Made by a program: the position numbers and the translations under genes. 64,000 nucleotides of DNA from Ignavibacteriales bacterium (GTDB taxonomy: Bacteria; Bacteroidota; Ignavibacteria; Ignavibacteriales; Melioribacteraceae), in NCBI GenBank assembly GCA_020061355.1, contig JAGUYK010000025.1, positions 47,815-111,814 of the forward strand, given 5' to 3'. The first letter of the stretch is position 1; every line of letters begins with the position of its first letter. Below, one piece after another: positions 1,710 through 23,983 of the stretch. The notes beneath the pieces were generated by a model. It made no database searches. It saw only the letters and a list, made by a program, of their open reading frames with translations, and was not told the origin of the DNA.

Positions 1710-1773
1710 TTACACCATACCTTCTTCATATCTTCTTTCAGATTTAAGAAACAAATATCTAGAAGGGATTCTT

Positions 1774-5775: not shown

Positions 5776-6582
5776 ATGAAAAAAACTTTTTTATTACTAC
5801 TCCTTACTATAGTATGCGGTTCTTCGGTCATTGCACAAAATCCTATTATAGAGGATTCCGTACAGCTGAATAAGTATAATTTTACTCAATTTGCATCTGA
5901 GTCATGGAGCTTCATAAAGCGACCGGTTGAATGGGAGGGAAGTGATTGGTTAAAATTAGGCATCATAAGTGCCGGAACATTTTTAATAATGGAAACCGCC
6001 GATCAACCGATTCGAAATGCAGTTTTAAAAGATCAAATACATTCTAAAAGTTTTCCACTTGAATTTGGCAGAATGTGGGGAGAACTATATTCACCAATTC
6101 TGCTCTTTAGCAGTTTTGCTATCCATTCATTGTTAACAGATGACACTGGAACCAGAAAAATTGCCTATGAGATTGCTCAGGCCTCTCTCTATACCGGGGC
6201 AGTTACATATTTATTAAAGGTAGCGATTGGGAGAGCGCGTCCTTATATGAATGAAGGCTCTAACTCTTTTCACCCATTCTCTTCATTCATTACCCAGGAT
6301 TATCACTCACTTCCGGGTGGGCATAGTGTTGCCGCATTTGCTTTATCTACTGTTCTTTCAAGGAACGCTAAACCGGTTTGGTTAAAAATAATAGCTTATA
6401 TACCTGCTGCACTTACCTTTGTTTCCCGGGTTTATCAAGAGAAACACTGGACCTCTGATGATTTCTTAGGTGCCGGACTCGGATATCTTATCGCGACCTG
6501 GGTTGTAGATCAACATGAGAATAATAAATCAATATTAGAAATTTCTTCGGCATTTCCGTTTTCTATGAGGATTGCACTCTAA
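5776..6582 (+). CDS. PAP2-family phosphatase (membrane-associated)
   Basis: Three PAP2 motifs: KVAIGRARPY, LPGGHS, SRVYQEKHWTSDD. ATG 5776 (MKKTFLLLLL...) preferred over ATG 5764. Confidence 0.8.
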   Translation: MKKTFLLLLLTIVCGSSVIAQNPIIEDSVQLNKYNFTQFASESWSFIKRPVEWEGSDWLKLGIISAGTFLIMETADQPIRNAVLKDQIHSKSFPLEFGRMWGELYSPILLFSSFAIHSLLTDDTGTRKIAYEIAQASLYTGAVTYLLKVAIGRARPYMNEGSNSFHPFSSFITQDYHSLPGGHSVAAFALSTVLSRNAKPVWLKIIAYIPAALTFVSRVYQEKHWTSDDFLGAGLGYLIATWVVDQHENNKSILEISSAFPFSMRIAL

Positions 6583-7161
6583 ACTATCTCAATGGGAGAT
6601 TCATAATAAATAATTTTAATTATTGTAAAAGAGATTAATCACATGAGAATAACTATAAACACACTGCTATGGTTAGTGTTAACCCGAATACTATTGGTTT
6701 TTATGTACTTCTATGGCTGGTCGTTTGTTGATAACATATTAAAAGAAAATGTCAGTTGAAATGAATTGTGGGTATTGAAATTTCCGGATGGATTCTCGCA
6801 TTGTTTACTTTTTGTTTCGGTCTCTTTTTTGGTCGGCTTCTTTTTAGAAGGAGAATGTAATCAGTTAAGAGCTACTTTAACAATATTCTGTTTTTATTAA
6901 AATGGAGTTAAATAATTCTTGACCAAGGAATTTTCAATATCGAATGTATTAGTTGGTTTTGGTGTAGGGGTATTATGCGGCGTATTAATCCCGGAACTTA
7001 ATCGTGTAGAGGAGAAAGGCATTTTATTGGGAATCTATTCTTCCTCCGAGGCAACTGGAATATCTGTAAAATGGCAACCAGGTTTTTTAAAATAGAAATG
7101 TGTGAATCATGTAATTTTTTTCCAGGATCATATATCATAAATAAAATTGGATAATAATAAT

Positions 7162-7773
7162 ATGGAACTTACTATTTTTCTTAAAGGTATAGCAATTGGT
7201 TTTGCCATGGCAGTCCCGGTTGGACCTATTGGAATTATATGTATCCGCAAAACTCTTACCGAGGGTCGACTACACGGACTAGTAATAGGTCTGGGGGCAG
7301 CAACTGCAGATATGCTTTACGGTTGTATTGCTGCATTCGGGCTTACAATTATTTCAGATACACTTAATGATCAAAAAATTTGGATAAGACTGGTTGGAGG
7401 AGCCCTTCTTTTTTTCCTGGGTATAAGAACATTTCGCGCCCACCCTGCTGATCCTAAAATTCCTATTAAAAGCAAAGGAATGTTCAGATCATATCTCACA
7501 ACTATTTTTTTAACGCTTACTAATCCTATGACTATCTTTGCATTCATAGCGATATTTGCTGCACTTGGTTTAGGAAACGGGCTCAGTTATTTTTCTGCAG
7601 CAGCTCTTGTTGTAGGTGTTTTTATCGGTTCATGTTTATGGTTTCTGTTACTTAGTTCCGGCGTTACTCTTTTTCGAAATAAACTGGACCTGAAAGGATT
7701 GCGGTGGGTAAACAAAATTGCCGGTGTTCTGATAATTATTTCGGGTGTAATTGCCATTGCAAGTTTGCTATAA
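7162..7773 (+). CDS. LysE/RhtB-family amino-acid exporter
   Basis: Six hydrophobic segments. N-terminal GIAIGFAMAVPVGPIG and central LTNPMTIFAF are typical of LysE translocators. ATG 7162 preferred over TTG 7147. Confidence 0.75.
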   Translation: MELTIFLKGIAIGFAMAVPVGPIGIICIRKTLTEGRLHGLVIGLGAATADMLYGCIAAFGLTIISDTLNDQKIWIRLVGGALLFFLGIRTFRAHPADPKIPIKSKGMFRSYLTTIFLTLTNPMTIFAFIAIFAALGLGNGLSYFSAAALVVGVFIGSCLWFLLLSSGVTLFRNKLDLKGLRWVNKIAGVLIIISGVIAIASLL

Positions 7774-7867
7774 TTTTTTTTCGAAAAAGTTTCATTTTGC
7801 TCATCAATAGCGAATGCGAATTAAACGATTTCTCATTGTTTATCATTCAATACCAAAAGGAATTTTC

Positions 7868-8539
7868 ATGAAAGATTTAACTGGTTTTTTTTCATCGGTT
7901 TTAGTTACGTTAATAACACTTCTTCCAATTGTCAATCCGGTTAGTACTGCAATTCTTCTTCTGGGTATTAGTGAGCATCTTAGTAAAGAAGATCGTAATC
8001 GTCAAATTACTTTAGCCTGCTTTTATATGACAGGAATCTTAGTTGTTTTTCTATTAGGCGGTCATTTAATAATGATTTTCTTCGGCATCTCGGTACCCGG
8101 AATTAGAATAGCCGGCGGAATGGTAATCGGATTTCTCGGATTTCGTATGTTGTTTCCCAGTGAAGAACATATTACTCAAAAAGGGAAAGAGGAGGCACTT
8201 CAAAAACCCGATATATCGTTTAGTCCGCTTGCAATGCCCAGCTTAGCAGGTCCGGGTGCTATTGCAACTGTAATAACAATTTCTTCAGCAATTGATAGCC
8301 GGCATGGTTATGACAAGGTATTTGCTTTCGCCGGTGTGGTTATTGCCATTCTTATAACGGCAATAATTTCCTGGTTGGTTCTTCGCAGTGCCGGTTTTAT
8401 TCGCCGGATTCTTGGAGTAAATGGGGTCGATAGTCTTTCGAGAATAATGGGTTTTATTCTTGTCTGTATAGGGATTCAATTTGTAATTAATGGAATAAAG
8501 GATCTTGCACTGGATGCCGGGTTCTGGCAGAAATTATAA
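7868..8539 (+). CDS. MarC-family (UPF0056) integral membrane protein
   Basis: Polytopic membrane protein with the N-terminal LLPIVNPVSTA motif typical of the MarC family. ATG 7868 (MKDLTGFF) preferred over 7814. Confidence 0.7.
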   Translation: MKDLTGFFSSVLVTLITLLPIVNPVSTAILLLGISEHLSKEDRNRQITLACFYMTGILVVFLLGGHLIMIFFGISVPGIRIAGGMVIGFLGFRMLFPSEEHITQKGKEEALQKPDISFSPLAMPSLAGPGAIATVITISSAIDSRHGYDKVFAFAGVVIAILITAIISWLVLRSAGFIRRILGVNGVDSLSRIMGFILVCIGIQFVINGIKDLALDAGFWQKL

Positions 8540-8899
8540 TGATATCCTTATTTGGGATTCCCAATCCAATACTTATATAATTATTCCGTGAAACAATAAA
8601 ACAAATGATCTTTCAGTATCTGCATTCAAAAACACCTCGTAAATATCTTTTTTATCGGGAAATCATCTCTTTTTATTAACTTTCTCCGGGTGATATCTAA
8701 TCCATCTTCATCAATTTTCCGGTATGATTGTTGATTTTTTTTTTTTGCATTAAACATTACATTTTAATAATTTTTAGCGGTTTTAATGACAAATAAGATT
8801 TTTTTAGTCCATTCTATTTTTTGTGACATTTGCAAGCGGATCAAGAGAAGTAAGATTTGGCAGTTATTTTGATTTTTATTTAGAACAATTGGAAACGTA

Positions 8900-9577
8900 A
8901 TGAAGAAAATACTGATACTGCTTATTGAAGATAATAGACTTCTTCGTGATGGTATAGCGACGATGCTCAAGAAAGAGTCTGATATGCATGTTGTTGCTAC
9001 GGTTGGTAATGGCGAAAACATTCTTCTGATGATTGATAAAAACAAGCCGGATATATTACTTCTCGATCTCGGTTTAAGAAGTCAAAACAGTCTACAAATA
9101 GTAAAATTAACAAAGCAGAATTTTCCGGAAACTAAAATAATAGTAATGGATCTTGTACCGCTCCAGGCAGATGTTCTTGAATTTGTGCAGGCGGGAGTTT
9201 CAGGATTCATACTTAAAGATGCAAACGTTGCGGAATTTTATAAAACTATCCGATCAGTTTACAATGGCGAACAGATTTTACCTCCGCATTTAACCGGTTC
9301 GCTTTTTTCTCAAATTGTTGATTATGCAGTCAATGGATTTAAACCGTCTATAGTCGCAGAATCGGTTCGCATGACAAAACGCGAAAGACAGGTAATTGAA
9401 TTAATAGCAGATGGTTCTACAAATAAAGAAATTGCACAAAAACTTCACCTTTCGACCTACACCGTTAAAAGCCACGTTCATAACATACTCGAAAAATTAA
9501 CGTTAAATACACGAGTGCAAATTGCTAAACATGCTCACCTCTCAGATTCTTATAAAACTGATTTAGACACTACCTAA
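8900..9577 (+). CDS. NarL/FixJ-type response regulator (REC + LuxR HTH), paralog 1
   Basis: REC domain (E10-D11, phospho-acceptor D56 in LLLDLGL, K106 in GFILKD). C-terminal LuxR HTH: LTKRERQVIELIADGSTNKEIAQKLHLSTYTVKSHVHNILEKL. Confidence 0.9.
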   Translation: MKKILILLIEDNRLLRDGIATMLKKESDMHVVATVGNGENILLMIDKNKPDILLLDLGLRSQNSLQIVKLTKQNFPETKIIVMDLVPLQADVLEFVQAGVSGFILKDANVAEFYKTIRSVYNGEQILPPHLTGSLFSQIVDYAVNGFKPSIVAESVRMTKRERQVIELIADGSTNKEIAQKLHLSTYTVKSHVHNILEKLTLNTRVQIAKHAHLSDSYKTDLDTT

Positions 9578-9608
9578 TTAATTAACCAACAATAGACTGT
9601 CGTTTACC

Positions 9609-9653
9609 CGTCCAAAAGATGTAGTTCCTTTTTCATCCCTTTGACCGATTGAA
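9609..9653 (+). promoter_or_regulatory. conserved upstream element, copy 3
   Basis: CGTCCAAAAGATGTAGTTCCTTTTTCATCCCTTTGACCGATTGAA, starting 32 nt after the paralog 1 regulator stop codon. TTGAAT 9649-9654, 17-nt spacer, GATAAT 9672-9677. 99 nt upstream of ATG 9752. Confidence 0.85.
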
Positions 9654-9751
9654 TATCTCTTCATAACTGGCGATAATGGAGCCGTAATAAAAAATCTCTT
9701 ATCAAATAAGGGACGGATTTTTTATAAAGTAATAACCGATGGAGGTTCAAG

Positions 9752-10138
9752 ATGACGAATGAAGCAAAAGGAATGGGAAAAGGTCTGTTGATTGGAATTT
9801 TTACCGGCGCTGCTGTCGGATCAATCATTGCACTTCTCTATGCTCCTAAATCCGGTAAAAAGTTGCGCGAGGAAATAAAAACCAAATCACAGGATTTTAC
9901 CGAGGATGCCGAAAAGTATATTTCGAATGCTAAAAGGAAAGCGTCACATTTGATCGAAGATGTAAAAAAAAAGTTCGAATCTTTGGTTACTGAAGCTGAG
10001 GATAATGTAGATGCTATTCTGGATGAATCCGAAAAGGTTCTTAAAAACGCAAAAGACAAAGTTGAAGATTATGTCGAATCCGGTAAAGTAAGTTTAAGAA
10101 AAAAAGCAACCTCGTTAAATTCGCATAGGCGTGAATAA
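9752..10138 (+). CDS. YtxH-domain (general-stress-type) protein
   Basis: N-terminal GLLIGIFTGAAVGSIIALLYAPKSGKKLREEIK is the YtxH signature, followed by a charged helical region. SD GGAGG lies 8 nt upstream. Confidence 0.85.
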   Translation: MTNEAKGMGKGLLIGIFTGAAVGSIIALLYAPKSGKKLREEIKTKSQDFTEDAEKYISNAKRKASHLIEDVKKKFESLVTEAEDNVDAILDESEKVLKNAKDKVEDYVESGKVSLRKKATSLNSHRRE

Positions 10139-10173
10139 AATAGATATATAATTGAAAAGGAAGATTGAATAGA

Positions 10174-10554
10174 ATGACTTTAATTGATGTTTTTGTGATA
10201 GTCTTAATCCTTACGGCTTTCTCACTCTCTATTTTTGTTATTGTATTTTTAAAAAGAATTTACATGCAAGCAGTAACGGTTCAAAAAGATATTCACCGGC
10301 TTGTTGAAAATACAATCCCCGTTATGAGTAATTTAAAAGAGGTTACTGAACGTGCAAACAGGATAGTGACGGGAGTTGAGGGATACTATAATGAAGCTGA
10401 TTGCTTGATTAAAAATGTGCGTGAACGAATTTCAATCCTAACTTCTAATAGAAGATTTCGTTCTGTCGAGCGCCCCGTCAAGTACATAGTCAATAATATA
10501 AGGGCATTGGCAAGCGGCACTTCTGCTTTCTTGAATTCATATAAACATAAGTAA
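10174..10554 (+). CDS. DUF948-like membrane-anchored protein
   Basis: Single N-terminal TM helix then a helical region. This is the usual size and architecture of DUF948 proteins, which often sit next to YtxH genes. ATG 10174 preferred over TTG 10165. Confidence 0.5.
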   Translation: MTLIDVFVIVLILTAFSLSIFVIVFLKRIYMQAVTVQKDIHRLVENTIPVMSNLKEVTERANRIVTGVEGYYNEADCLIKNVRERISILTSNRRFRSVERPVKYIVNNIRALASGTSAFLNSYKHK

Positions 10555-10816
10555 TTTTTGTAATAAGACTTCTAATCACGGTGCGTATCAAAATATTGTA
10601 TCCAAATAGTATGTCTCATATTTTGGGATCGCGTTATTCTTATGCATTCAAATTCCTCATCTTTATCTCTCAAAGTAAAAGCTACTTTCATAACATCCCT
10701 GGATAATTAATATTAAATATTCGCAAGAATATTGCAAAGCACGTGCATCTTTCTAATTCTTTTAAACTGCTATCGATACTTATTTATTAATTGACGAATA
10801 ATTATTTATCGTTAAC

Positions 10817-10860
10817 CTACCCAAAAGAAGTAGTTCCTTTTTCATCCCTTCGATTCATTT
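10817..10860 (+). promoter_or_regulatory. conserved upstream element, copy 4 (3' part divergent)
   Basis: CTACCCAAAAGAAGTAGTTCCTTTTTCATCCCTTCGATTCATTT. Followed by TTTACA-N17-TACCTT, which is homologous to the region after copy 9. 141 nt upstream of ATG 11001. Confidence 0.7.
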
Positions 10861-11000
10861 ACACATTCATAATATCTACTTACCTTATTATGGAATTAAT
10901 ATCGGTCACTATTTCAATAACAAGTAGAGATTAATATGAACAAAATTGCAAGAGCAATTATTCGAACAGAAAATCTTTAATAAACTAAAAGGAGATTCAC

Positions 11001-12092
11001 ATGAAAACCTATACAAAAGATCCAACAAATGTATTAAGTAGATTTAAGCGCTTACTCGGTGCTATGCTTATTATTGCTTTGATGATGCCTGCCATAGCCA
11101 TCTCTCAATCGTCACCGTCAAGAGTGAATCTTGGAACGGCTGGGGATTTCGTAATTCTATCCAAAACAGGAATCTCAACAACGGGAGCTTCTCAAATTAC
11201 CGGAGATATTGGCGTTAGTCCTGCTGCAGCAACATACTTAACCGGATTTGGATTAATCATGGATGCCTCAGGTACGTACTCCACATCATCATTAATTACC
11301 GGTAAAGCATATGCAGCCGATTATACTTCCCCTACACCAACTAAAATGACTACAGCTGTGGGCGATATGGAAACCGCTTACACCGACGCGGCAGGACGTA
11401 CAAATCCTAATTTCACTGAACTGTATAGTGGAGATATTACAGGCAAAACCCTGACTCCCGGTCTTTACAAGTGGGGTACCGGAATACTAATTTCTGCAGC
11501 CGGTGTTACAATCTCTGGCACTTCAAGCGATATCTGGATTTTCCAGATTGCACAAAATCTGACCGTAGATAACGGTGCTATTGTAACATTAAGCGGCGGT
11601 GCTCAAGCTTCCAACATTTTCTGGCAAGTTGCCGGACAGGTTAATCTTGGAACATCTGCTGCCATGAAAGGAATTATTTTGTGTCAGACTGCGATTGCGA
11701 TGAATACCGGAGCAACACTCGACGGCAGGGCACTGGCGCAGACCGCAGTTACTTTAAACGCTAATGCTGTTTCTAAACCTGCAATTGCGACCTCCGTTAA
11801 GAATACTATTGTACCTCAAGCATTCGCACTATTCCAGAACTACCCTAATCCATTCAATCCATCAACCACGATTCAATACAATCTTAGTAAAGCTGCGAAT
11901 GTTTCTTTAAAGGTCTATAATGTACTTGGTAATGAAGTTGCCACACTCGTGAGAAGTAATCAGGAAGCAGGCAGCTATAGTGTACCTTTTGGCAATAGTA
12001 GAGAAACATTAGATCTTTCAAGCGGTGTATATTTCTATCGTCTTGAAGCCGGATCCTATGTCGCCACAAAGAAGTTCATTTTAATGAAGTAG
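11001..12092 (+). CDS. DUF3494 (ice-binding-like fold) secreted protein with T9SS C-terminal sorting domain
   Basis: LGTAGDFVILSKTGIS, GDIGVSPAA, ETAYTDAAGR, DIWIFQIAQ, NIFWQVAGQV, DGRALAQTAVTL. C-terminal NYPNPFNPSTT...GVYFYRLEAG...KKFILMK. SD AAGGAG upstream. Confidence 0.85.
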   Translation: MKTYTKDPTNVLSRFKRLLGAMLIIALMMPAIAISQSSPSRVNLGTAGDFVILSKTGISTTGASQITGDIGVSPAAATYLTGFGLIMDASGTYSTSSLITGKAYAADYTSPTPTKMTTAVGDMETAYTDAAGRTNPNFTELYSGDITGKTLTPGLYKWGTGILISAAGVTISGTSSDIWIFQIAQNLTVDNGAIVTLSGGAQASNIFWQVAGQVNLGTSAAMKGIILCQTAIAMNTGATLDGRALAQTAVTLNANAVSKPAIATSVKNTIVPQAFALFQNYPNPFNPSTTIQYNLSKAANVSLKVYNVLGNEVATLVRSNQEAGSYSVPFGNSRETLDLSSGVYFYRLEAGSYVATKKFILMK

Positions 12093-12127
12093 TTTTTTTG
12101 GATGAAGTTAAACAAATCAAAAATTTC

Positions 12128-12160
12128 AAGGCTGTCTCATTTGAGCAGCCTTTTATTTTT
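12128..12160 (+). terminator. rho-independent terminator
   Basis: AAGGCTG-loop(10)-CAGCCTT followed by TTTATTTTT, 36 nt after the stop at 12092. Confidence 0.7.
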
Positions 12161-12246
12161 CAGAAATAATCAAGTTCTATAAATAATTGTAAGCATTAAA
12201 TAAAAAGGATGATAGAGATTTAATAATTAACTAACGAATAATTGCC

Positions 12247-12290
12247 CACCCCAAAAGATGTAATCCCTTTTTCATCCTTTTGGACTATGG
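12247..12290 (+). promoter_or_regulatory. conserved upstream element, copy 5 (3' part divergent)
   Basis: CACCCCAAAAGATGTAATCCCTTTTTCATCCTTTTGGACTATGG, 188 nt upstream of ATG 12478. No clean -35/-10 found downstream. Confidence 0.65.
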
Positions 12291-12477
12291 TTTTATTATT
12301 AAGATGTTTTTACAATTCGATTGGATAAAAAAGACAAAACAGAAAAAGTTTCTCTAAGGGGTTGTGCTATTTTTTAACAGAGGAATGTTGGTATCAATCA
12401 ATATTAGGCATGACAGAACTTAATAAAAGTAGAAAAAAAATAAAGGAATATTTGTATCATCTCTGGAGAAAATACTT

Positions 12478-14199
12478 ATGAAAAAAAACATATTAAACTT
12501 TCAGCGAAAAATACTTCCTAAGGCTCCCACAAGTATTCAAGGATTGGACGAAATAACAGGCGGTGGATTACCGAAAGGGAGACCAACTCTTGTATGCGGA
12601 GGTGCAGGCTGCGGAAAAACCCTATTTGCAATGGAGTTCCTCGTTCGCGGTGCAACTCTGTACAATGAACCCGGCGTATATATTTCGTTCGAAGAAACTG
12701 AAAAAGAACTGACAGCTAACGTTGCTTCGTTGGGATTCGATTTAAATGACCTTGTAAAACGAAAAAAGATTTGGCTTGAACACGTTCATATTGAACGCGG
12801 TGAAATTGAAAAGAGCGGGGAATATGACTTGAAAGGATTGTTTGTCCGTATCCATCACGCAATTGAAAACATAAAGGCAAAGCGTTTAGTACTGGATACT
12901 ATTGAATCACTTTTTTCAGCTCTTCCGAACTCAACTATTGTTCGCACAGAACTGCGGCGGTTATTCGGCTGGCTGAAAAAGAAAGGTGTTACGGCAATAA
13001 TCACCGGAGAACGGGGGAATGAAACTTTAACACGTCAGGGTTTGGAAGAGTATGTTTCCGATTGTGTTATACTTTTGGATCATCGAGTGAGCGATCAATC
13101 ATCCATACGACGATTACGAATTGTTAAATACCGTGGGTCAATGCACGGAACAAATGAATATCCTTTCTTAATTGATGAGGATGGTTTTTCTATATTACCT
13201 GTAACCTCGCTTGGCTTGAATCATATTTCATCTAAAGAAAGAATTTCCACCGGCATTCCGCGTCTTGATACTATGCTTTCCGGAAAAGGTTACTATCGTG
13301 GCAGTACAGTGCTTGTTTCAGGTACCGCTGGTACAGGTAAAACAAGTCTTGCAGCGCAATTTGTTCAAGCTGCATGTAAACGTGGTGAACGTGTTCTTTA
13401 TTTTGCTTTCGAAGAATCCCCGAGTCAATTTATGCGCAACATGGCTTCGATCGGAATTCATCTGGAACCGTGGGTGAAAAAAGGATTACTCCACTTTCAC
13501 GCAACACGACCAACACTGCATGGATTGGAACATCATTTAACAACTTCTATTAAATTAATTAATGAAGTTAAACCGCAAATAGTTGTTCTCGATCCTATTG
13601 ATGCATTCGTGATGGGAGGGAACCAGACTGAAGTTAAAATAATGCTGCTGCGCCTTGTGGACTTTTTAAAGATGAGAAATATCACTGCATTCTTTGCAAG
13701 CTTAACTAACTCAGGAGAGAACCAGGAGCTAACGGATATGTCAATATCCTCACTAATAGATACATGGCTGCTATTGCGTGATATCGAATTTGGCGGTGAA
13801 CGAAACAGGGGATTGTATATTCTTAAATCGCGGGGTATGTCGCATTCCAATCAAATCCGTGAGTTTATACTTACCGACAGTGGAATTGATCTGCTTGATG
13901 TCTATGTTGGTCCCGAAGGCGTTCTTACCGGCTCGGCTCGATTGGCGCAAGAAGCGAAAAACTATGAAGAACAATTGCTGCATCAACAAGACATTGAACG
14001 GAAACAACTCGAATTAGAACTTAAACGTGCGGCTGTAGAAGCTCATATTGCAGTATTACAGTCTGAATTCAAATCAGAAGAATCAGATACACTCAAGATT
14101 ATCGAGATGGAAAAAGCAAAAACCGAAAGGGTTGTACAGGTTCAGAAAAAAATGGCGGAGAGTAGAAAAGCGGATAAACTCGTGAAAAAACCGGCATAA
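12478..14199 (+). CDS. kaiC: KaiC-family double RecA-like ATPase with C-terminal coiled-coil extension
   Basis: Two KaiC domains. Walker A motifs GGAGCGKT and GTAGTGKT. Catalytic EE pairs YISFEE and YFAFEE. SISSLIDTWLLL aligns with the S. elongatus KaiC phospho-site segment HISTITDTIILL. About 80 extra C-terminal residues are heptad-like and charged (EAKNYEEQLLHQQDIERKQLELELKRAAVEAHIAVLQSEF...). Confidence 0.85.
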   Translation: MKKNILNFQRKILPKAPTSIQGLDEITGGGLPKGRPTLVCGGAGCGKTLFAMEFLVRGATLYNEPGVYISFEETEKELTANVASLGFDLNDLVKRKKIWLEHVHIERGEIEKSGEYDLKGLFVRIHHAIENIKAKRLVLDTIESLFSALPNSTIVRTELRRLFGWLKKKGVTAIITGERGNETLTRQGLEEYVSDCVILLDHRVSDQSSIRRLRIVKYRGSMHGTNEYPFLIDEDGFSILPVTSLGLNHISSKERISTGIPRLDTMLSGKGYYRGSTVLVSGTAGTGKTSLAAQFVQAACKRGERVLYFAFEESPSQFMRNMASIGIHLEPWVKKGLLHFHATRPTLHGLEHHLTTSIKLINEVKPQIVVLDPIDAFVMGGNQTEVKIMLLRLVDFLKMRNITAFFASLTNSGENQELTDMSISSLIDTWLLLRDIEFGGERNRGLYILKSRGMSHSNQIREFILTDSGIDLLDVYVGPEGVLTGSARLAQEAKNYEEQLLHQQDIERKQLELELKRAAVEAHIAVLQSEFKSEESDTLKIIEMEKAKTERVVQVQKKMAESRKADKLVKKPA

Positions 14200-14233
14200 C
14201 GATTAAGGGGAGTTTTTTTAGATATAAAATGAT

Positions 14234-15085
14234 ATGGCTAAAATGGAAAAAATAATTTTTATGCAAACTAATTATGAAAAGCAGGAAGAAAAAGCCAAAC
14301 AGGATAATTCTTCAATTATTATTTCTGATTCTGTATTTAGGAAATTCTTTATTGAAGTCTATTCAATTACAATTTTTACTCTGCGATTTTTCAAAGAAGT
14401 ATTGAAACCGCCGTATGAATTCAATGAACTTATGAAGCAATCTTTTCTAATCGGTTACAAATCACTTCCTTTGATAGTTATTACCGGATTTATAATTGGA
14501 CTTGTACTTACTATTCAAACAAGACCGACTTTGGCAAAATTTGGTGCAGAATCGTGGTTGCCTGCAATGGTGGCGGTTTCAATTATAAGGGAAATAGGAC
14601 CGGTTATTACTGCGTTAATCTTTGCTGGAAAAGTCGGATCGGGAATCGGGGCAGAATTGGCATCAATGAATGTAACAGAACAAATTGATGCTATGCAGGT
14701 ATCTGATACAAATCCATTTAAATATCTTGTTGTAACCAGGGTGGTTTCTGCAACATTGATTCTTCCGCTATTAGTAATTTTTGCAGATGCTGTTGGTTTA
14801 TTAGGTTCTTATGTAGGGGTTAACATAAAAGGAAATGTCAGCGCTTACTTTTATTTTTCACAGGTATTTCAAAGCCTCGAATTTGCTGATCTGTTCCCTG
14901 CCATCATCAAAACATTTTTCTTCGGATTCGCCATCGGACTAATAGGAAGTTATAAAGGATATAATTCAAACAAAGGTACTGAAGGTGTGGGAAAAGCGGC
15001 AAACTCAGCCGTTGTATTCGCATCTTTAATGGTTTTTTTAATTGATATGATAGCAGTACAAATTACAAGTTTGCTTCAAAACTAA
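14234..15085 (+). CDS. mlaE: MlaE-family ABC transporter permease
   Basis: Polytopic permease with REIGPVITALIFAGKVGSGIGAELASMNVTEQIDAM, typical of the MlaE/YrbE family. The start could be a downstream Met. Confidence 0.8.
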   Translation: MAKMEKIIFMQTNYEKQEEKAKQDNSSIIISDSVFRKFFIEVYSITIFTLRFFKEVLKPPYEFNELMKQSFLIGYKSLPLIVITGFIIGLVLTIQTRPTLAKFGAESWLPAMVAVSIIREIGPVITALIFAGKVGSGIGAELASMNVTEQIDAMQVSDTNPFKYLVVTRVVSATLILPLLVIFADAVGLLGSYVGVNIKGNVSAYFYFSQVFQSLEFADLFPAIIKTFFFGFAIGLIGSYKGYNSNKGTEGVGKAANSAVVFASLMVFLIDMIAVQITSLLQN

Positions 15086-15102
15086 ATTGAGCAGTTGGAA
15101 GA

Positions 15103-15882
15103 ATGATAGAAAACGGAACTTCAATAAAAATTGAAAATGATAATAAACAGAACGGTACTGTTATTGTTGAGATGCAGCATCTTAAAAAATCTTTTGGGAA
15201 CAACCATGTTCTGAGGGATATTAATCTGGTTGTTCATAAAGGAGAAAACCTGGTAATACTCGGACAATCAGGAACAGGTAAATCAGTCCTTATTAAATGT
15301 ATTGTTGGATTGGTCGAAATTGACGAAGGCAAACTTATGATATTCGGGCAGGATGTTTCTGAATTGAAGAATAAAGAATTAGTTAAGATATACAAAAAGA
15401 TCGGTTTCCTTTTCCAAAGCGGGGCACTATATGATTCCATGTCGGTAAGAGAAAATCTTGAATTCCCGCTAAGGAGACAAATGCGATCAATGAAAAAAAA
15501 AGAAATGGACGTTCTTATTAAAGAAGCATTGGAAGATGTTGGACTTGAAGAAGCAATTGATCTGTCTCCCTCGGAGCTTTCAGGTGGAATGCGCAAAAGA
15601 TTAGGTCTAGCCCGAACCTTGATTTTAAAACCCGAGATTATGCTTTATGACGAACCTACAACTGGACTGGATCCTATAACATCAAAAGAAATAAGTAATC
15701 TCATAATGGAAGTACAAAAAAAATATAACACTTCTTCAATCATAATCACTCATGATATTGAATGCACCAAACTTACGGCAAATAGAATCATAGTGATTAA
15801 GGATGGTGTATGTGCAGCAGAAGGGTCGTATGAAGATCTTGAGAAATCGAGTGATCCATGGATAAGATCGTTTTTTGAATAA
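15103..15882 (+). CDS. mlaF: ABC transporter ATP-binding protein (MlaF-like)
   Basis: Walker A GQSGTGKS, signature LSGGMRKR, Walker B IMLYDEPTTGLD. Confidence 0.85.
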   Translation: MIENGTSIKIENDNKQNGTVIVEMQHLKKSFGNNHVLRDINLVVHKGENLVILGQSGTGKSVLIKCIVGLVEIDEGKLMIFGQDVSELKNKELVKIYKKIGFLFQSGALYDSMSVRENLEFPLRRQMRSMKKKEMDVLIKEALEDVGLEEAIDLSPSELSGGMRKRLGLARTLILKPEIMLYDEPTTGLDPITSKEISNLIMEVQKKYNTSSIIITHDIECTKLTANRIIVIKDGVCAAEGSYEDLEKSSDPWIRSFFE

Positions 15883-15912
15883 AACATAAGACAATAATTA
15901 AGAGTAAATAAA

Positions 15913-16779
15913 ATGAAAAAGAGTACATCTAATAAAATGAGATTGGGAATATTTATTTCCATTGGAATAGTGCTGCTAATTTTAGGCATCTATTTTATCG
16001 GTGAGAAACAGCAATTATTTAGAAGCACTTTTCGTGTAACAGGAGTATTTAAAAATGTATCCGGGCTTCAAATAGGCAATAACGTTCGGTTATCAGGAGT
16101 AAATGTAGGAACCGTTGATAATATTAGCATTGTCTCCGATACTTCAGTAAGTGTAGAAATTATGATCGATGAAAATGCCCGGCAGTTTATAAAGAAGGAT
16201 GCTATTGCAAGCATCGGCTCGGAGGGACTGATGGGAAATAAAGCATTAATTATTAATCCCGGAACGGGTGGAAAAAAGAGAATAGAAAGCGGAGATATCA
16301 TTGCTACAAGTATGCCGATTGATATTGATAGTATATTGATGAAATTAAAAACAACAGTTGAAAATACAGCCGATATTACAGGTGATTTGGCAAGTATGAC
16401 AAGGAATATTGAGTCAGGAAAAGGAACAATTGGAAGATTGATAATGGATAAATCGTGGAGGGAAAATTTCGAAACTACTTTTATTAATTTAAGAAAAGGT
16501 TCCACCGAGTTCAGAATTCTTATGGAGAAAGCGAATGATATCGACCAGGCAATATTATCCGTAAAAGAAGCTATTGAGAATACATCCAATATCACAAGTG
16601 ATTTGGCTAAGATTACCGCCAGCATAGAATCGGGAGAAGGAACTATCGGACGACTATTAATGGATAGATCAATGGCTCAAAATATCGATTCTACTTTTAT
16701 AAAATTGAAAGAAGGAGCCGCCGGACTTAAAATACTTATGGAGAAGGCAAAAAGCAGTTGGCTGCTATGGGGTTTTTAA
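15913..16779 (+). CDS. mlaD: MlaD/MCE-domain protein with duplicated C-terminal helical module
   Basis: N-terminal TM helix plus MCE domain (VTGVFKNVSGLQIGNNVRLSGVNVGTVDNI). Two 72-aa repeats follow (…ITGDLASMTRNIESGKGTIGRLIMDKS… and …ITSDLAKITASIESGEGTIGRLLMDRS…). Confidence 0.8.
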   Translation: MKKSTSNKMRLGIFISIGIVLLILGIYFIGEKQQLFRSTFRVTGVFKNVSGLQIGNNVRLSGVNVGTVDNISIVSDTSVSVEIMIDENARQFIKKDAIASIGSEGLMGNKALIINPGTGGKKRIESGDIIATSMPIDIDSILMKLKTTVENTADITGDLASMTRNIESGKGTIGRLIMDKSWRENFETTFINLRKGSTEFRILMEKANDIDQAILSVKEAIENTSNITSDLAKITASIESGEGTIGRLLMDRSMAQNIDSTFIKLKEGAAGLKILMEKAKSSWLLWGF

Positions 16780-16814: not shown

Positions 16815-16857
16815 CTCCAAATGATGTAGTCCCTTTTTCATCCTTTCGGTCTATTTC
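16815..16857 (+). promoter_or_regulatory. conserved upstream element, copy 6 (3' part divergent)
   Basis: CTCCAAATGATGTAGTCCCTTTTTCATCCTTTCGGTCTATTTC, 99 nt upstream of ATG 16956. Confidence 0.65.
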
Positions 16858-16955
16858 TTAGGCGCAAGATATTAAATAACTTCTTACAGGTTAATTGCCT
16901 TAATGGTTATCAAATAATTAACCAATATATAATCAATTAAATAAAAGGAGCAGTA

Positions 16956-18836: not shown

Positions 18837-21779
18837 ATGAAGAAGAGAGCTATTCCAAAAAAAGATCCAATCAAAAAAAAGAAAAGTAGAGATGAATTAT
18901 CATCTTCCGGTAATTCATTTTATGTAGTCGGTATCGGCGCATCTGCAGGCGGTTTAGAAGCACTCGAAAGATTTTTCAGAAATATGCCTGAGAATACAGG
19001 CATGGCTTTTATCGTAGTGTCGCATTTAGATCCCAATCATGTAAGCATTATGCCCGAGCTGGTTCAAAAATCTACCAAGATGAAATTATTTCAAGCTCAA
19101 GACGGAATGAAGGTAGAACCGAATCATGTTTATGTAGCTCCGGCTAACCGGGATTTAGCAATTCTTCACGGAACAATTCAATTAATAGAACCTATTGAAC
19201 CGCATGGATTCCGCCTTCCGATTGATTTTTTCTTCAATTCCCTTTCTTCAGATTTAGGTGAAAAAGCTATTTGTATTATTCTTTCCGGTATGGCTTCCGA
19301 TGGTACTTCGGGATTAAAAGCAGTAAAGAGTGAATTAGGAATGGTAATGGTTCAGGATCCGAAATCGGCAAAGTTTGACGGAATGCCAAGCAGCGCAATT
19401 AAAACCGGGTTAGCAGATTACATCCTTTCACCTGAAGAGATGCCGGAACAGTTGATTAAATATACCACCCAAAAAATAAGGGGTTTTTTATTAGACAAGG
19501 CAATTGACGACGGTAAAATTCCGGATACGTTTCAAAAAATTTTCATTCTGCTTAGAACTCATACCGGACACGATTTTTCGCTTTACAAACAAAATACAAT
19601 TTACCGGCGAGTAGAAAGAAGAATGAATGTTTCTCAATTGGATAGTATTCCAAATTATATAAGGATGCTTCAGGAAAACCCCGCAGAAATTGATAACTTG
19701 TTTAGAGAACTTTTAATTGGCGTAACAAATTTTTTCAGAGATCCCGAATCCTTCGAGAAATTGAAAAAGGTGTTATTAGAGTTGGTAAAAAGTAAACCTG
19801 ATGACGGTCTGATCAGAATTTGGGTGCCCGGATGCTCTACCGGCGAAGAGGCATACTCCATTGCAATTATATTACGGGAATGTATAGATGAAACGAAGAA
19901 AAATTTAAACGTTCAAATATTTGCCACAGATATTGATAGTAGTGCTATTGAGAAAGCCCGAAATGGTTCATTCTCGGGAATTGAATCCGATGTTGGTATA
20001 GAACGTTTGAAACGTTTCTTTACTTCAGAAGGGAATATTTTTCATATTCGAAAAGAAATAAGAGAGATGCTGGTCTTTGCAACGCAAAGTATTATTAAAG
20101 ATGCTCCATTTACCAGACTCGATTTGGTCTCATGCCGCAATCTTCTTATTTATCTTAATTCTGAATTACAGAAAAAATTAATTCCTATTTTCCATTATAG
20201 TCTATTACCCTCAGGAATACTGGTTCTCGGTTCATCGGAAACTATAAGCGGGTTTGTAGATCTGTTTTCAATGGCAGATAAAAAATGGAAAATTTACAAA
20301 AGAAGAGATTCTGTTTTTTCTGTACAACCGTTAATAGAATTTCCTGTTTTACGTCCAATAGCAAAACCTAATGAGCCAATAATGAAAAAGAACGAAGTTA
20401 AAAACATTCCCCATTTAGCAGAAAAAATAATTCTGCAAAGCTACTCACCAAATTGTGTGATAATAACTCAAAGTGGAGATATATTGTATATCCATGGTAG
20501 AACCGGCAAATTCCTTGAGCTTACACACGGTGAAGCAAAGATGAACATTTTTGAAATGGCACGAGAAGGATTAAGACAGGAACTTCCTACATTGATTAGA
20601 AAAGTTTCAACAAGTAAGAAATCATTAACCGTAGAAGGAATAAAGGTAAAAAATAACGGCAGCAGCCAATCAATAAACCTTACTGTTAAATATGTTAAAG
20701 AGCCGCTTGAAATGTCGGGTTCTATGTTGATCATTTTTGAGGAAGTTGTAGAACAAAAGAAATTGCCGACTTCTAAAAAAATCCATTATGAAAAGAAATC
20801 GGAAAGAGTTATTAAAGAACTTGAACACGAGCTAAAATCTACTAAAGCGAATTTAAGATCAACTATTGAAGAATTAGAAACTTCCAATGAAGAACTTAAA
20901 TCGACTAACGAAGAGATGCAGTCGACAAATGAGGAGATGCAAAGTTCAAATGAAGAATTAGAAACTTCCAAAGAGGAATTACAGTCCCTGAATGAGGAAT
21001 TGATTACTGTAAACACCGAGCTGCAGAATAAGAACGATGAATTATCAACTATCAATAATGATATGAAAAATCTGCTTGACAGCACTGATATCCCGACCAT
21101 CTTTCTTGATAATAATTTATGTATAAAAAGATTTACGCATCATGCATCAAAGGTTATAAACCTAATTGCTTCCGACGTTGGAAGACCAATAAACCATATA
21201 GCAACAAATCTGAAATATGAAAAGTTTATTGAGGATGCCAGGGAAGTTTTAAGAACACTTGTTTATAAAGAAATCGAGCTGCAAACCAAAGAAGATCTCT
21301 GGTTTCAAATGAGAATATTGCCTTACCGGACAATAAGCAATCTTATCGACGGTGTTGTAATAACATTTTTAGATATAAACAATTTAAAAATTGCTTATGG
21401 AAAAATTCATAAGCTGAATCAAGAGGTTCAACTAGCCCGTGAGTATTCAAATAATATTGTTGATACCGTGAGAGATTCGCTTCTTATTCTTGATAAGAAT
21501 TTGAAAGTCCTTTCTGCTAACCGTTCTTTTTATAAAATGTTTAATACAGTCAGCGAAAAAACCGTCGGCAAGTTTATTTACGAGCTTGACGATAATAATT
21601 GGGATATCCCTGAACTGCGTAAACTCCTTGAGGAAATAATTCCTAAATCAACTTTTTTTGAAGATTATGAACTCGAATACAATTTTAAAAAGACCGGTAG
21701 AAAAAAATTATTATTGAATGCCCGCGAGATATTTCAGGGAGATAAAGAATCCCAACTAATACTTCTTGCAATCCAGTAG
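18837..21779 (+). CDS. CheB-methylesterase/CheR-methyltransferase fusion protein with coiled coil and PAS domains
   Basis: CheB-type domain ([14 protein letters not shown]...), CheR SAM-methyltransferase motif ([17 protein letters not shown]), and heptad coiled coil [44 protein letters not shown]. Two PAS-like modules follow. Confidence 0.85.
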
Positions 21780-21965
21780 CAAAGTATAAAATAAAGAGGT
21801 CATCACTTAAATATGTAATTTGATCTTTGAACCAGTTAAGGTATTTTAATGGAAACCCCATGCTTCAGCATGGGGGTGAAATCCAGACAATCAAAATGGG
21901 CTTTCCCCAAGGAATCCTTTGGATAGCCCGGAAAAAATAGAGATTATTATAAGAGGTGCCGAAAA

Positions 21966-23252
21966 ATGAATCGTACAAAAAAGGAATCAGGAAAAATCGT
22001 TATTAAAAAAGCGAAGAAAAAAATCGAGCCGAAACCTAAAAAGACCTCTGTTGAAAAAATTGAGGATGTTAAAAAATTAGTGCATTTACTCCAGGTGCAT
22101 CAGATTGAACTGGAACATCAAAACGAAGAACTTAGAATTGCCCAGGAAGAGTTGGAAGTATCGAGGAATAAATACGTAAACCTATTTGATTTTTCCCCGA
22201 TCCCTTATTTTACATTAGACCCGATTGGGAAAATAATGGAAGTGAATTTAAGTGCCAGTAAAATGTTCGGAATTGATCGAAAAATATTAATTGGTAAGCG
22301 TTTTAGTTCTTTTATCCCGATGGACGAAAAAGATATTTTTAATTCTTTTATTCAAACTGTTTTTACATCTCCGGTAAAACACTCTTGCGAATTAAAAGTG
22401 ATGAGCAAAGATAAACGAGTTTTCAGTGTTCTACTGGAAGGCTTAAAGTTAGACGACACACTGGAATCAGATCCTAAATGCCAGGTTGCTTTAATCGATT
22501 TGACCGAATACAAAAAGATCGAGGTTTCGTTAAAAGAGTCCAACAAAGAACTTAAAAAACTAAATAACACTAAAGACAGATTCTTCGCAATCATTGCGCA
22601 TGATTTAAGAAGCCCTTTTCAATCTTTTTTAAGCACTTCGGAATTGCTTTCTACGGAAATTGAAACTTTATCGCAGGAAGATATATTATTATTCAGCCGG
22701 GGACTGCATGATAATTTAACAAAATTCTATAGACTCCTGGAAAATTTGCTCAATTGGTCAATGATGCAAAAAGACATGCTTGAGTATAAATCGACAAGTA
22801 TTAACCTTTATGATGCAGTGAATAAAATAATTGAAATATCTAATCAATGCGCTTTGAAGAAAAATATTTCTTTGTCCAACAATGTGGTAAAAGGAACCTT
22901 CGTTATTGCAGATGTTGATATGCTTCGCTCGGTTATTCAAAACCTTATATTAAATGCAATCAAATTCACTCAAATGGAAGGACAGGTAATTGTATCCTCT
23001 GTTGAAAAGGATGGTTTTGTTGAAGTATCAGTTCAGGATACCGGGATAGGAATTGATCCGGAAAAATCTTCCAAACTTTTCAACTTTGAAACAATATTTA
23101 CAACCAACGGAACTGCCGGAGAGAAAGGGACCGGACTTGGATTACCTCTTTGCAAAGAATTTATTGAAAGAAACGATGGTACTATTCGGGTCGAAAGTGA
23201 ATTAGGAAAAGGATCAACATTTACATTCACTTTACGCAAAGCAATTTCATAA
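21966..23252 (+). CDS. PAS-domain sensor histidine kinase
   Basis: N-terminal coiled coil HQIELEHQNEELRIAQEELE plus PAS. H-box FFAIIAHDLRSP. ATPase N and G boxes (NLILNAIKFT, DTGIGI, GTGLGLPLCKEF). Confidence 0.9.
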   Translation: MNRTKKESGKIVIKKAKKKIEPKPKKTSVEKIEDVKKLVHLLQVHQIELEHQNEELRIAQEELEVSRNKYVNLFDFSPIPYFTLDPIGKIMEVNLSASKMFGIDRKILIGKRFSSFIPMDEKDIFNSFIQTVFTSPVKHSCELKVMSKDKRVFSVLLEGLKLDDTLESDPKCQVALIDLTEYKKIEVSLKESNKELKKLNNTKDRFFAIIAHDLRSPFQSFLSTSELLSTEIETLSQEDILLFSRGLHDNLTKFYRLLENLLNWSMMQKDMLEYKSTSINLYDAVNKIIEISNQCALKKNISLSNNVVKGTFVIADVDMLRSVIQNLILNAIKFTQMEGQVIVSSVEKDGFVEVSVQDTGIGIDPEKSSKLFNFETIFTTNGTAGEKGTGLGLPLCKEFIERNDGTIRVESELGKGSTFTFTLRKAIS

Positions 23253-23290
23253 ATAAAATTGAAATATTTTTTCTAACAATTGTAAGCACA

Positions 23291-23983
23291 ATGAAAAAAA
23301 TTAAAATACTGCTTATTGAAGATAATAGACTGTTGCGTGATGGCATTGCCTCATTATTAAAAAAGCAGCCTGATATGCGGGTCGTTGCAACAATAGGGGA
23401 TGGAAAAAATATTCGAGATATAATTGAGAAGCACAAACCGAATATAGTGCTTCTCGATCTCGGTTTAAAAAGTCAGAACAGCTTGCATGTTGTAAAATTA
23501 ATTAAGGAAATATTTCAAGAAGCCAAAATTATTGTGATGGATCTTGTTCCTGTTCAGGCAGATGTTTTCGAATTTGTTCAGGCGGGTGTATCAGGATTCA
23601 TACTTAAAGATGCAAATGTTTCAGAATTATATCAAACTATCCGGAAAGTAAATCAGGGTGCTCGAATTTTACCTCATCAATTAACCGGTTCGCTTTTTTC
23701 TCAAATCGTTAAAAACGCTGTTGTTAGATCTAAACCTTCCATAATCGATAAATCAGTACGGTTGACAAAACGTGAATTGCAGGTAATCGAATTAGTTTCA
23801 GATGGTCTGACCAATAAAGAAATTGCCCAAAAACTTCGTCTATCACAGTACACAGTAAAAAGCCACGTACATAACATACTTGAAAAATTAGCACTCACTA
23901 CGCGTGTACAGATTGCAAAGTACGCTCATATCTCCGACACTTACAAAGTTACCAAGGATAGCACTTCTTTAATAAGTAAATAA
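23291..23983 (+). CDS. NarL/FixJ-type response regulator (REC + LuxR HTH), paralog 2
   Basis: Aligns end to end with paralog 1, with most positions identical by eye (MKKIKILLIEDNRLLRDGIA..., VLLDLGL, GFILKD, LTKRELQVIELVSDGLTNKEIAQKLRLSQYTVKSHVHNILEKL). Lies directly after the histidine kinase gene. Confidence 0.9.
   Translation: MKKIKILLIEDNRLLRDGIASLLKKQPDMRVVATIGDGKNIRDIIEKHKPNIVLLDLGLKSQNSLHVVKLIKEIFQEAKIIVMDLVPVQADVFEFVQAGVSGFILKDANVSELYQTIRKVNQGARILPHQLTGSLFSQIVKNAVVRSKPSIIDKSVRLTKRELQVIELVSDGLTNKEIAQKLRLSQYTVKSHVHNILEKLALTTRVQIAKYAHISDTYKVTKDSTSLISK

Follow-up and report, generated by a model that had tools for sequence, protein, structure and literature searches.

The window analysed here is a stretch of 64,000 nucleotides from an Ignavibacteriales bacterium of the family Melioribacteraceae (GenBank assembly GCA_020061355.1, contig JAGUYK010000025.1, positions 47,815 to 111,814 of the forward strand), and coordinates given without a locus name are positions within it. 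It carries a gene for a homolog of the clock protein KaiC, which stands behind one copy of a recurrent operator-like element and is followed on the same strand by three genes resembling mlaE, mlaF and mlaD. An earlier note on this DNA, made from the letters and a list of open reading frames (ORFs), had described an orphan KaiC with a coiled-coil tail that is apparently co-transcribed with the Mla-like genes. The unit consists of the following features.

12255-12287, plus strand: operator-like element, copy 5 of 11, an imperfect inverted repeat AAAGATG..N12..CATCCTTT
12288-12316, plus strand: predicted sigma70-like core promoter, with a -35-like TGGTTT (12288-12293), a 17-nt spacer and a -10 TACAAT (12311-12316)
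12478-14199, plus strand: kaiC, 573 aa, KaiC2 or Rhodobacter sphaeroides type
12598-12621 and 12691-12696, plus strand: Walker A motif and EE pair of the kaiC CI domain
13321-13344, 13411-13416 and 13747-13752, plus strand: Walker A motif, EE pair and S424/S425 of the kaiC CII domain
13936-14196, plus strand: C-terminal extension of KaiC (residues 487-573), a predicted helical coiled-coil tail
14200-14245, plus strand: AT-rich kaiC-mlaE spacer with no terminator and no promoter element
14234-15085, plus strand: mlaE-like permease (PF02405, E 3e-72)
15103-15882, plus strand: mlaF-like ABC ATPase (PF00005, E 6.7e-32)
15913-16779, plus strand: mlaD-like MCE-domain protein (PF02470, E 3.8e-15)
16821-16882, plus strand: operator and promoter, copy 6, the downstream boundary of the kaiC-mlaEFD unit, ahead of orf142 and a C11-like gene

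The kaiC product contains two KaiC domains (Pfam PF06745, E 8.7e-109, in two stretches) and reaches 737.7 bits with the NCBIfam KaiC model NF006799, whose cut-off is 408, over residues 10-514. Both Walker A motifs, GGAGCGKT at residues 41-48 and GTAGTGKT at residues 282-289, and both EE pairs (residues 72-73 and 312-313) are intact, and with tandem domains above the cut-off and a Walker A motif and an EE pair in each of CI and CII the protein belongs to the double-domain KaiC family. It does not belong to the cyanobacterial circadian type, as the cyanobacterial KaiC equivalog TIGR02655 gives 360 bits against a cut-off of 546, the phosphosite is SS instead of ST, and KaiA and KaiB are missing from the window. 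The motif SISSLIDT, beginning at residue 422, supplies the serine pair S424/S425, which aligns with the SS pair of R. sphaeroides KaiC (KaiC_RS), the pair that is EE in the phosphomimetic entry 8FWI. The best solved structure is that of KaiC_RS itself (PDB 8DBA, E 2.5e-196); the alignment spans residues 14-564, the tail included, and shows an identity of 53.7% overall, 63% in CI, 53% in CII and 28% in the tail.

The C-terminal tail (residues ~487-573) further separates this protein from the cyanobacterial KaiCs, to which the alignment ends at about residue 494, whereas the alignment to the coiled-coil tail in 8DBA continues free of gaps to residue 564. Conservation of the tail among 69 Ignavibacteria homologs is 77%, and its conserved hydrophobic positions recur at a heptad-like spacing of ~7 residues; a coiled coil is predicted from this pattern and from the alignment. 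An AlphaFold2 (AF2) model of low confidence (mean predicted local distance difference test score, pLDDT, 51) places helices at residues 485-531 and 538-567; its input was a shallow alignment in which all sequences are at least 85% identical, and we used only the prediction of a helical tail from it. The KaiC2 clade is defined by the SS pair and the extension (PMC10076222, PMC5520375), and the window protein has both, two serines at the phosphorylation site and the ~50-aa extension beyond cyanobacterial KaiC. In KaiC_RS, whose phosphosites are S413/S414 and whose SS pair and ~50-aa extension are typical of kaiC2 (PMC10076222), the extension forms a coiled coil that joins two hexamers and permits KaiA-independent autophosphorylation (Pitsawong et al., PMC10076222). 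Judged by these sequence characters, the product of 12478-14199 is a KaiC2 of the R. sphaeroides type, predicted to be independent of KaiA. This type is considered the primordial version of the clock protein. The earlier note's account of the protein thus holds: a 573-aa protein with both KaiC domains and intact Walker A and EE motifs, an SS pair at the position of the cyanobacterial S431/T432 sites, and a C-terminal extension of ~80 residues like that of the KaiA-independent proteobacterial KaiCs.

The main departure from the R. sphaeroides system lies downstream of kaiC. The KaiBC hourglass of KaiC_RS (8DBA, 8FWI, 8FWJ; kaiC2 clade) shares with the window protein the double-domain architecture, the Walker A and EE motifs, the SS pair and a C-terminal extension of the same length that aligns without gaps, and KaiA is absent from both systems. 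However, kaiB follows kaiC in R. sphaeroides and not here, the tails are only 28% identical, and the window gene belongs to the phylum Ignavibacteriota, stands behind a lineage-specific operator-promoter and is joined to mlaEFD. A cognate kaiB, which in a KaiBC hourglass normally lies directly downstream of kaiC2, is thus missing from the locus, and tblastn with Synechococcus elongatus KaiB and KaiA and with Ignavibacteria KaiB found no match to either protein in the 64-kb window, in agreement with the earlier note. Its term "orphan" is apt for this locus and for the loci of the lineage; it does not reach to the whole genome.

Comparison with relatives, for which we examined 80 genome loci (referred to by L numbers) and two look-ups of 94%-identical proteins (L081 and L082), indicates that kaiB was lost. 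The best protein matches of the window come from Melioribacteraceae and Ignavibacteria metagenome-assembled genomes (MAGs). Of the 62 loci with a KaiC sharing at least 79.5% identity with that of the window, none has an adjacent kaiB, whereas 10 of 13 more distant loci do. A broad KaiC2 sample of 80 loci was drawn from a metagenome scan seeded with KaiB-linked KaiC2 (62-87% identical to the KaiC of L072, GC content 0.36-0.73); here kaiB follows kaiC in 71 of the 73 loci with enough downstream sequence, often in two tandem copies, and a kinase often lies 1-1.8 kb beyond it. The two KaiB-less loci of this sample, L091 and L098, are both among the only three that have the element, and the third, L099, has the element together with KaiB. 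Directly after kaiC, the Melioribacter sp. MAG locus L008 retains a kaiB pseudogene (11701-12400) with insertions and an in-frame stop, and L029 a kaiB fragment (L029:3275-3391); the position of these remnants points to loss, not relocation. The inserts in the L008 kaiB are palindromic and resemble miniature inverted-repeat transposable elements (MITEs; e.g. TTAACACCTCGATTAATCGAGGTGTTAA and AACCGTTTCAACGGTT), and similar palindromes occur in the spacers of L016 and L028.

Sequence comparison thus shows kaiB to be gone from the locus in the Ignavibacteria lineage of the window, with decayed remnants in relatives. The Bacteroidetes KaiB2/KaiC2 pairs (Schmelling et al. 2017, PMC5520375) fall into the KaiC2 subgroup of the window protein, within the Bacteroidota-Ignavibacteriota-Chlorobiota lineage; their layout, kaiC-kaiB(-kaiB), is present in the more distant relatives L063-L080, whereas the adjacent kaiB has been lost in the sub-lineage of the window. 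The element precedes kaiC-kaiB in L069 and L099, and kaiC-kaiB-mlaEFD occurs in L067 and L128. Ordered along these layouts, the likely course would be that kaiC and kaiB were recruited under the element, mlaEFD and a small ORF joined them, kaiB was lost, and finally, in the sub-lineage of the window, the small ORF and the promoter of mlaE disappeared, so that a single promoter remained for kaiC-mlaEFD.

At the upstream end of the unit, sequence alone defines a predicted composite promoter for kaiC (12255-12316), in which the operator abuts a sigma70-like -35/-10 pair; the predicted transcription start lies near 12323 and the kaiC ATG 162 nt beyond the -10. The window has 11 copies of the element core, GATGTAGTNCCTTTTTCATCC, all of them on the plus strand, where chance would give 0.02, and the copy at 12257 is the fifth, as the earlier note had counted. 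The copies lie at the following positions.

1672, 4018, 9616, 10825, 12255, 16821, 24007, 29312, 29958, 38675 and 42293, all plus strand: copies of the element in the window

Taken together, the window and 82 related loci hold 228 copies of this ~40-nt element, whose information content is near 2 bits over ~35 positions. The conserved block reads TcAcCcAAAAGATGTAGTcCCTTTTTCATCCCTTTGc.CGA and is followed, at a fixed distance across the 228 copies, by TTGaat, 17 nt and TAnnnT, a sigma70-like -35/-10 arrangement. Alignment of the kaiC upstream regions of 23 loci shows that the operator and the -10 are conserved and the leader (5' untranslated region) is not, and the kaiC copy has its own variant, TTTGGACTAT, conserved across loci. 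Among 75 loci, 39 have the element ahead of kaiC. Around the unit it is found only at 12255, before kaiC, and at 16821, beginning 42 nt past the mlaD stop; with none inside, the kaiC-mlaEFD block is bracketed by two such promoters.

We considered what kind of element this is. An Rfam scan of the whole window at the gathering threshold was empty; the element and the kaiC leader therefore do not correspond to any known RNA. A hairpin acting as RNA was rejected, because variants of the left arm (AAAGGATG, AAAAGATG, AAAAGAAG and AAATGATG) are not matched by compensating changes in the right one, and conservation is as strong in the "loop" as in the arms. Together with the empty Rfam scan, these features make a protein-binding DNA site the better reading. 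A MITE or other mobile repeat was likewise rejected, because the orientation of the copies and their distances to the -10 motif and the following gene are fixed, and because kaiC has its own variant.

The genes behind the element suggest what it may control. The first ORFs downstream, counted in a sample that is biased to kaiC neighborhoods, are as follows.

39 copies: KaiC
13 copies: Ig-like or ice-binding-like proteins of the type IX secretion system (T9SS)
13 copies: DUF5670 small membrane proteins
11 copies: LuxR-type response regulators
11 copies: YtxH
10 copies: DUF4398, upstream of OmpA-family genes
10 copies: MlaE
8 copies: orf142
7 copies: B12-radical SAM

These copies define a candidate envelope and stress regulon of KaiC, MlaEFD, YtxH/DUF948, DUF5670, DUF4398-OmpA, ice-binding-like T9SS and B12-radical SAM proteins, and promoters of this type stand before a large number of the phylum's envelope and stress genes. 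A "CsbD-like" label for small ORFs of the regulon is not claimed here, as it goes back to a single weak match (E 0.084). In the window, ice-binding-like (PF11999) proteins with a T9SS tail are encoded at 1705-3039 and 11001-12092, each behind a copy of the element.

At the other end of the unit, mlaE, mlaF and mlaD follow one another on the plus strand with gaps of 17 nt and 30 nt, and an MlaE-family permease, an ABC ATPase and an MCE protein in one predicted operon make up a lipid ABC transporter. Orthology to the proteobacterial Mla system does not follow from this. The mlaE product scores 206 bits with TIGR00056 (cut-off 212) and 187 with NF033619 (cut-off 315); the mlaF product, at 172 bits against the 441 required by the MlaF equivalog, is a generic ABC ATPase in an Mla-type operon; and the mlaD product reaches 72 bits with TIGR04430, whose cut-off is 135. 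Pfam and NCBIfam searches found no MlaB (STAS), MlaC or MlaA domain in the unit or in neighboring ORFs. With all three products below the Mla-specific cut-offs and MlaB, MlaC and MlaA missing, the safe name is an MCE-type lipid ABC transporter of the Mla class; the MlaE-MlaF-MlaD-type operon that had been proposed stands in its domains and gene order and falls short of the NCBIfam cut-offs for Mla proper. E. coli MlaFEDB has the same MlaE-family permease, ABC ATPase and single-MCE-domain MlaD and the same gene trio and order type, but differs in that the window genes lie below the Mla cut-offs, have no MlaB, MlaC or MlaA in the unit, and encode an MlaD with a duplicated C-terminal helical region. 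This duplication, of ~50 aa, is internal to the C-terminal half of the protein (…ITGDLASMTRNIESGKGTIGRLIMDKS… and …ITSDLAKITASIESGEGTIGRLLMDRS…).

The spacer between kaiC and mlaE measures 34 nt to the first in-frame mlaE ATG (14234) and 46 nt to an ATG at 14246, replacing the 35 nt given previously. Compared with L081, L082, L003 and L034, the ATG at 14246 (MEKII…) is conserved, and that at 14234 is not kept in L082 or L003; the real start of mlaE is probably 14246. The spacer contains no terminator-like site and no stable hairpin (fold energy against shuffles, z = -0.17); a terminator in this gap was what the earlier note had named as evidence against its reading. The shared strand, the spacer of 34-46 nt, the lack of a terminator or hairpin and the restriction of elements to positions before kaiC and after mlaD make co-transcription of kaiC and mlaEFD plausible in this genome.

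Across relatives, the neighborhood of kaiC and mlaEFD is recurrent, yet the genes often form separate transcription units under the same operator type. The closest relatives, L081 and L082 (94% identical), keep the whole gene order including the direct abutment of kaiC and mlaE. The position of mlaE in the 67 loci with at least 3 kb of downstream sequence was distributed as follows.

3 of 67 loci: mlaE on the same strand, less than 100 nt from kaiC
19 of 67 loci: mlaE on the same strand, 184-1845 nt from kaiC
3 of 67 loci: mlaE on the same strand, 2-6.3 kb from kaiC
3 of 67 loci: a different mlaE paralog (~60% identical) on the opposite strand
39 of 67 loci: no mlaE within 10 kb of kaiC

In 22 of these 67 Ignavibacteria loci, therefore, mlaE lies on the same strand within 2 kb downstream of kaiC. 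Direct abutment is also seen in L003 and L081, which have shorter flanks, and is overall confined to the window and four relatives. Gaps of 230-900 nt between kaiC and mlaE usually hold a conserved Lys-rich ORF of 41-44 aa (MSKGQNSKSGSKKEPAKTMKEKKAAKREKKNEK...), which was seen in 24 of 80 loci. This ORF begins 65-120 nt past the kaiC stop in many relatives (e.g. L002:11831-11962, L025:11830-11958 and L046:8610-8732) and is preceded by a good Shine-Dalgarno sequence; it is absent from the window, and its product has no Pfam match. A separate copy of the element stands 80-160 nt before mlaE in ~10 loci. The gene order of the island is heavily shuffled among relatives.

In the broad KaiC2 sample, MlaE lies near kaiC in one of the 80 loci, L128, which has the Ignavibacteria-type order kaiC-kaiB...mlaE. 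In L072, from a Bacteroidales-labelled MAG, mlaD-mlaF-mlaE is divergent from kaiC-kaiB-kaiB (5926-11585) across a 434-nt intergenic region, and this layout is not kept in relatives with 85-87% identity (L083-L087 and L149). A general association of KaiC2 with Mla across phyla was rejected on these grounds. Conservation of the adjacency, a test suggested in the earlier note, is thus partial: the close synteny of L081 and L082 and the 22 loci with mlaE within 2 kb stand beside 39 with none within 10 kb. The link that it drew between KaiC and lipid homeostasis does not hold as a dedicated pair, considering the Lys-rich ORF in between, the elements belonging to mlaE itself, the 39 of 67 loci without Mla and the single case in the broad sample. 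The literature searched contains no paper combining KaiC with Ignavibacteria or with MlaE, and a search for KaiC with MlaD gave only chance matches of names.

The window also holds signaling genes, including a kinase that the earlier note had reported missing.

8900-9577, plus strand: LuxR/NarL-type response regulator (Pfam Response_reg and GerE), a candidate regulator of the element
18837-21779, plus strand: CheB-CheR-PAS protein (Pfam)
21966-23252, plus strand: PAS-HisKA-HATPase kinase (Pfam)
23291-23983, plus strand: LuxR-type response regulator (Pfam)
36781-37470: LuxR-type response regulator

The three LuxR-type response regulators, at 8900, 23291 and 36781, are paralogs, and the stop codon of the first lies 39 nt before copy 3 of the element. 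Over all loci, a same-strand element follows 33 of 62 LuxR-type regulator genes, mostly 32-49 nt past the stop; element and regulator occur together in 43 loci, the element without a regulator in 22, a regulator without the element in 3, and neither in 95. In 16 loci a regulator gene directly precedes kaiC, and in 11 an element is followed first by a regulator gene, the latter arrangement suggesting autoregulation. Given this layout, the LuxR-type regulators are the foremost candidates for proteins that bind the operator. The CheB-CheR-PAS protein, kinase and regulator trio also flanks kaiC or kaiC-mlaEFD in L013, L014, L020, L031, L053 and L082, and the trio at 18837-23983 is a candidate signaling partner module; no further kinase was found among the remaining large ORFs of the window. 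The 18837-21779 product has 980 aa arranged as CheB methylesterase, CheR methyltransferase, coiled coil and PAS, with no kinase domain.

The explanation that we favor, with moderate confidence, is that the gene encodes a KaiB-less KaiC2 autokinase and ATPase, dodecameric through its tail by homology, which is expressed together with an MCE transporter from a response-regulator-controlled promoter as part of a lineage-specific envelope and stress regulon, the connection to Mla being one of co-regulation. By homology to KaiC_RS, two KaiC hexamers would be joined by the C-terminal coiled coil to form a dodecamer; this coiled coil would keep the A-loop exposed and so allow autophosphorylation on S424/S425 without KaiA, and the phosphorylation state would follow the nucleotide status (ATP/ADP). 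Since kaiB is gone from the locus and survives as remnants in relatives, we infer a KaiB-independent sensor of energy, stress or time and not a KaiBC hourglass. Judging from gene layout, the operator would be bound by LuxR-type regulators of the same island, probably fed by the PAS kinase and the CheB-CheR-PAS sensor. Transcripts would read through the 34-46 nt spacer into mlaE-mlaF-mlaD and end before the element at 16821; in this sub-lineage, the loss of the small ORF and of the own promoter of mlaE may have tightened co-regulation into a shared promoter. Because the genes in relatives often form predicted separate units with their own elements, with the Lys-rich ORF in between, each acting like a member of the element-driven regulon in its own right, and Mla is often absent, the KaiC-Mla link is better read as co-regulation than as a dedicated machine.

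An output of KaiC, if there is any, might speculatively run through the PAS kinase and the LuxR-type regulator, by analogy to Pseudomonas. The orphan SS-type KaiC studied there has a demonstrated role in stress resistance and binds the PAS domain of a kinase (bioRxiv 10.1101/2022.01.26.477890). The Pseudomonas group III KaiC-like proteins (P. putida KT2440 type) are the best functional analogy: they share the SS pair and nearby kinase and response regulator genes, and the Pseudomonas genome has no KaiB. They differ in that their regulators are single-domain, non-DNA-binding proteins encoded in the kaiC operon, whereas those of the window are LuxR-type DNA binders usually encoded upstream of kaiC, with the kinase 7.8 kb away; no association with Mla is reported there, and the comparison covers the phosphosite, gene context and function. 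An extension of the favored explanation, in which the KaiB-less KaiC2 is a timing or energy-sensing feedback component of the operator regulon and modulates the PAS kinase and LuxR-type regulator through its ATP/ADP-set phosphorylation, seems to us unlikely on present evidence.

Several observations weigh against the KaiB-less, co-regulated KaiC2 and nourish other explanations. The "B-loop" region of CI is the same in KaiB-linked and KaiB-less KaiCs, which differ by 11 mostly conservative group-specific substitutions, so the surface for binding KaiB or SasA is still under constraint. The absence of KaiB was established over the 64 kb of the window and, in relatives, over the ~10 kb surrounding kaiC, and a kaiB elsewhere in the genome, or another partner of the B-loop, may exist. 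With the first of these, KaiC would cycle in a conventional KaiBC hourglass as in R. sphaeroides and Mla would be a mere neighbor in the regulon. Besides the unchanged putative KaiB-binding loop, such an hourglass would fit the rule that KaiB2 and KaiC2 come in pairs, as in the broad sample, their significant co-occurrence in cyanobacteria (PMC5520375), and the element-driven kaiC-kaiB loci L069 and L099, which show that regulon and KaiB are compatible. We nevertheless regard it as doubtful, because no close relative has an adjacent kaiB and the remnants in L008 and L029 point to loss. A KaiB profile search of a 5.8-billion-protein database counts weakly in the same direction: among the best 120 of 8000 KaiB2-type matches, none was on a contig matching in length the long (0.48-3.0 Mb) contigs with a KaiB-less kaiC. 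For the dodecamer, the poor AF2 model leaves the oligomeric state to be drawn from homology. The binding of response regulators to the element is likewise read from gene layout, and shared ancestry confounds their co-occurrence.

The remaining objections concern the tie between kaiC and mlaEFD, which might be either closer or looser than co-regulation. Proximity of the two persists through at least five local arrangements, including kaiC-kaiB-mlaEFD in L067 and L128, and could reflect a closer functional tie. In its strongest form, the phosphorylation or ATPase state of KaiC would physically regulate MlaFE, for instance in place of the missing MlaB, so that lipid transport would be gated by energy or time; the single transcript predicted here, the divergent mlaDFE of L072 and the lack of any MlaB, MlaC or MlaA homolog in the unit are compatible with this. 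We consider such direct coupling very improbable, however, as Mla is absent within 10 kb in 39 of the 67 Ignavibacteria loci and from 79 of 80 in the broad sample, close relatives of L072 have no Mla, mlaE is frequently set apart from kaiC by other genes and preceded by a promoter element of its own, nothing in the KaiC sequence distinguishes Mla-linked from Mla-less loci (no detailed test was made), and the literature searched makes no such connection. At the other extreme, kaiC and mlaEFD would be transcribed separately, without shared regulation, and adjacent merely through inherited synteny in a gene-dense, same-strand island. The operon-like strand, gaps and upstream promoter notwithstanding, a consensus scan gives weak sigma70-like matches at 14217-14256, a promoter may lie in the 3' end of kaiC or in the spacer, many relatives transcribe mlaE from its own element, and the island is heavily shuffled. 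Yet no element copy or terminator separates the genes in the window, where the spacer is only 34-46 nt, and in relatives both genes stand behind the same operator type, so that shared regulation would hold even with separate transcripts. A purely incidental neighborhood is therefore quite unlikely in our view.

The KaiC2 clade and orphan SS-type KaiCs with kinase and regulator neighbors were already known; new are the phylum, the series of kaiB decay, the operator-driven expression and the sharing of a promoter with MlaEFD. The lineage offers a natural series of KaiB loss, from element-kaiC-kaiB through the kaiB pseudogene and kaiC-small ORF-mlaEFD to kaiC-mlaEFD on one promoter, and the conserved operator with its adjacent LuxR-type regulators provides a clear regulatory handle. 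If KaiC feeds back on the regulon, a new output route of KaiC and the first defined stress or envelope regulon in Ignavibacteriota would be at hand: the expression of MlaEFD, OmpA-like proteins, the stress proteins YtxH/DUF948/DUF5670 and surface proteins of the T9SS would follow a schedule set by energy or time, through a KaiC-based output pathway unrelated to SasA/RpaA. If there is no feedback, the adjacency of KaiC and Mla would be explained by shared regulation, and no new mechanism would be needed.

Some further features of the loci deserve mention. Each of four MAGs has two kaiC loci whose products are 82-89% identical to the window protein (L021/L022, L043/L056, L044/L071 and L055/L073); some Ignavibacteria may carry two KaiC2 paralogs, or the bins may be mixed. 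The window is AT-rich (GC content ~0.37), and between positions 1 and 47424 nearly all ORFs of at least 120 aa lie on the plus strand, the exceptions being a 302-aa ORF at 41177-42085 and three nested minus-strand ORFs. At 30067-34590, a 1507-aa protein is encoded behind a copy of the element and followed by an OmpA-family gene; it contains 8-9 tandem repeats of 321 nt (107 aa) at ~30180-33050 and four of ~220 nt at 33059-33944.

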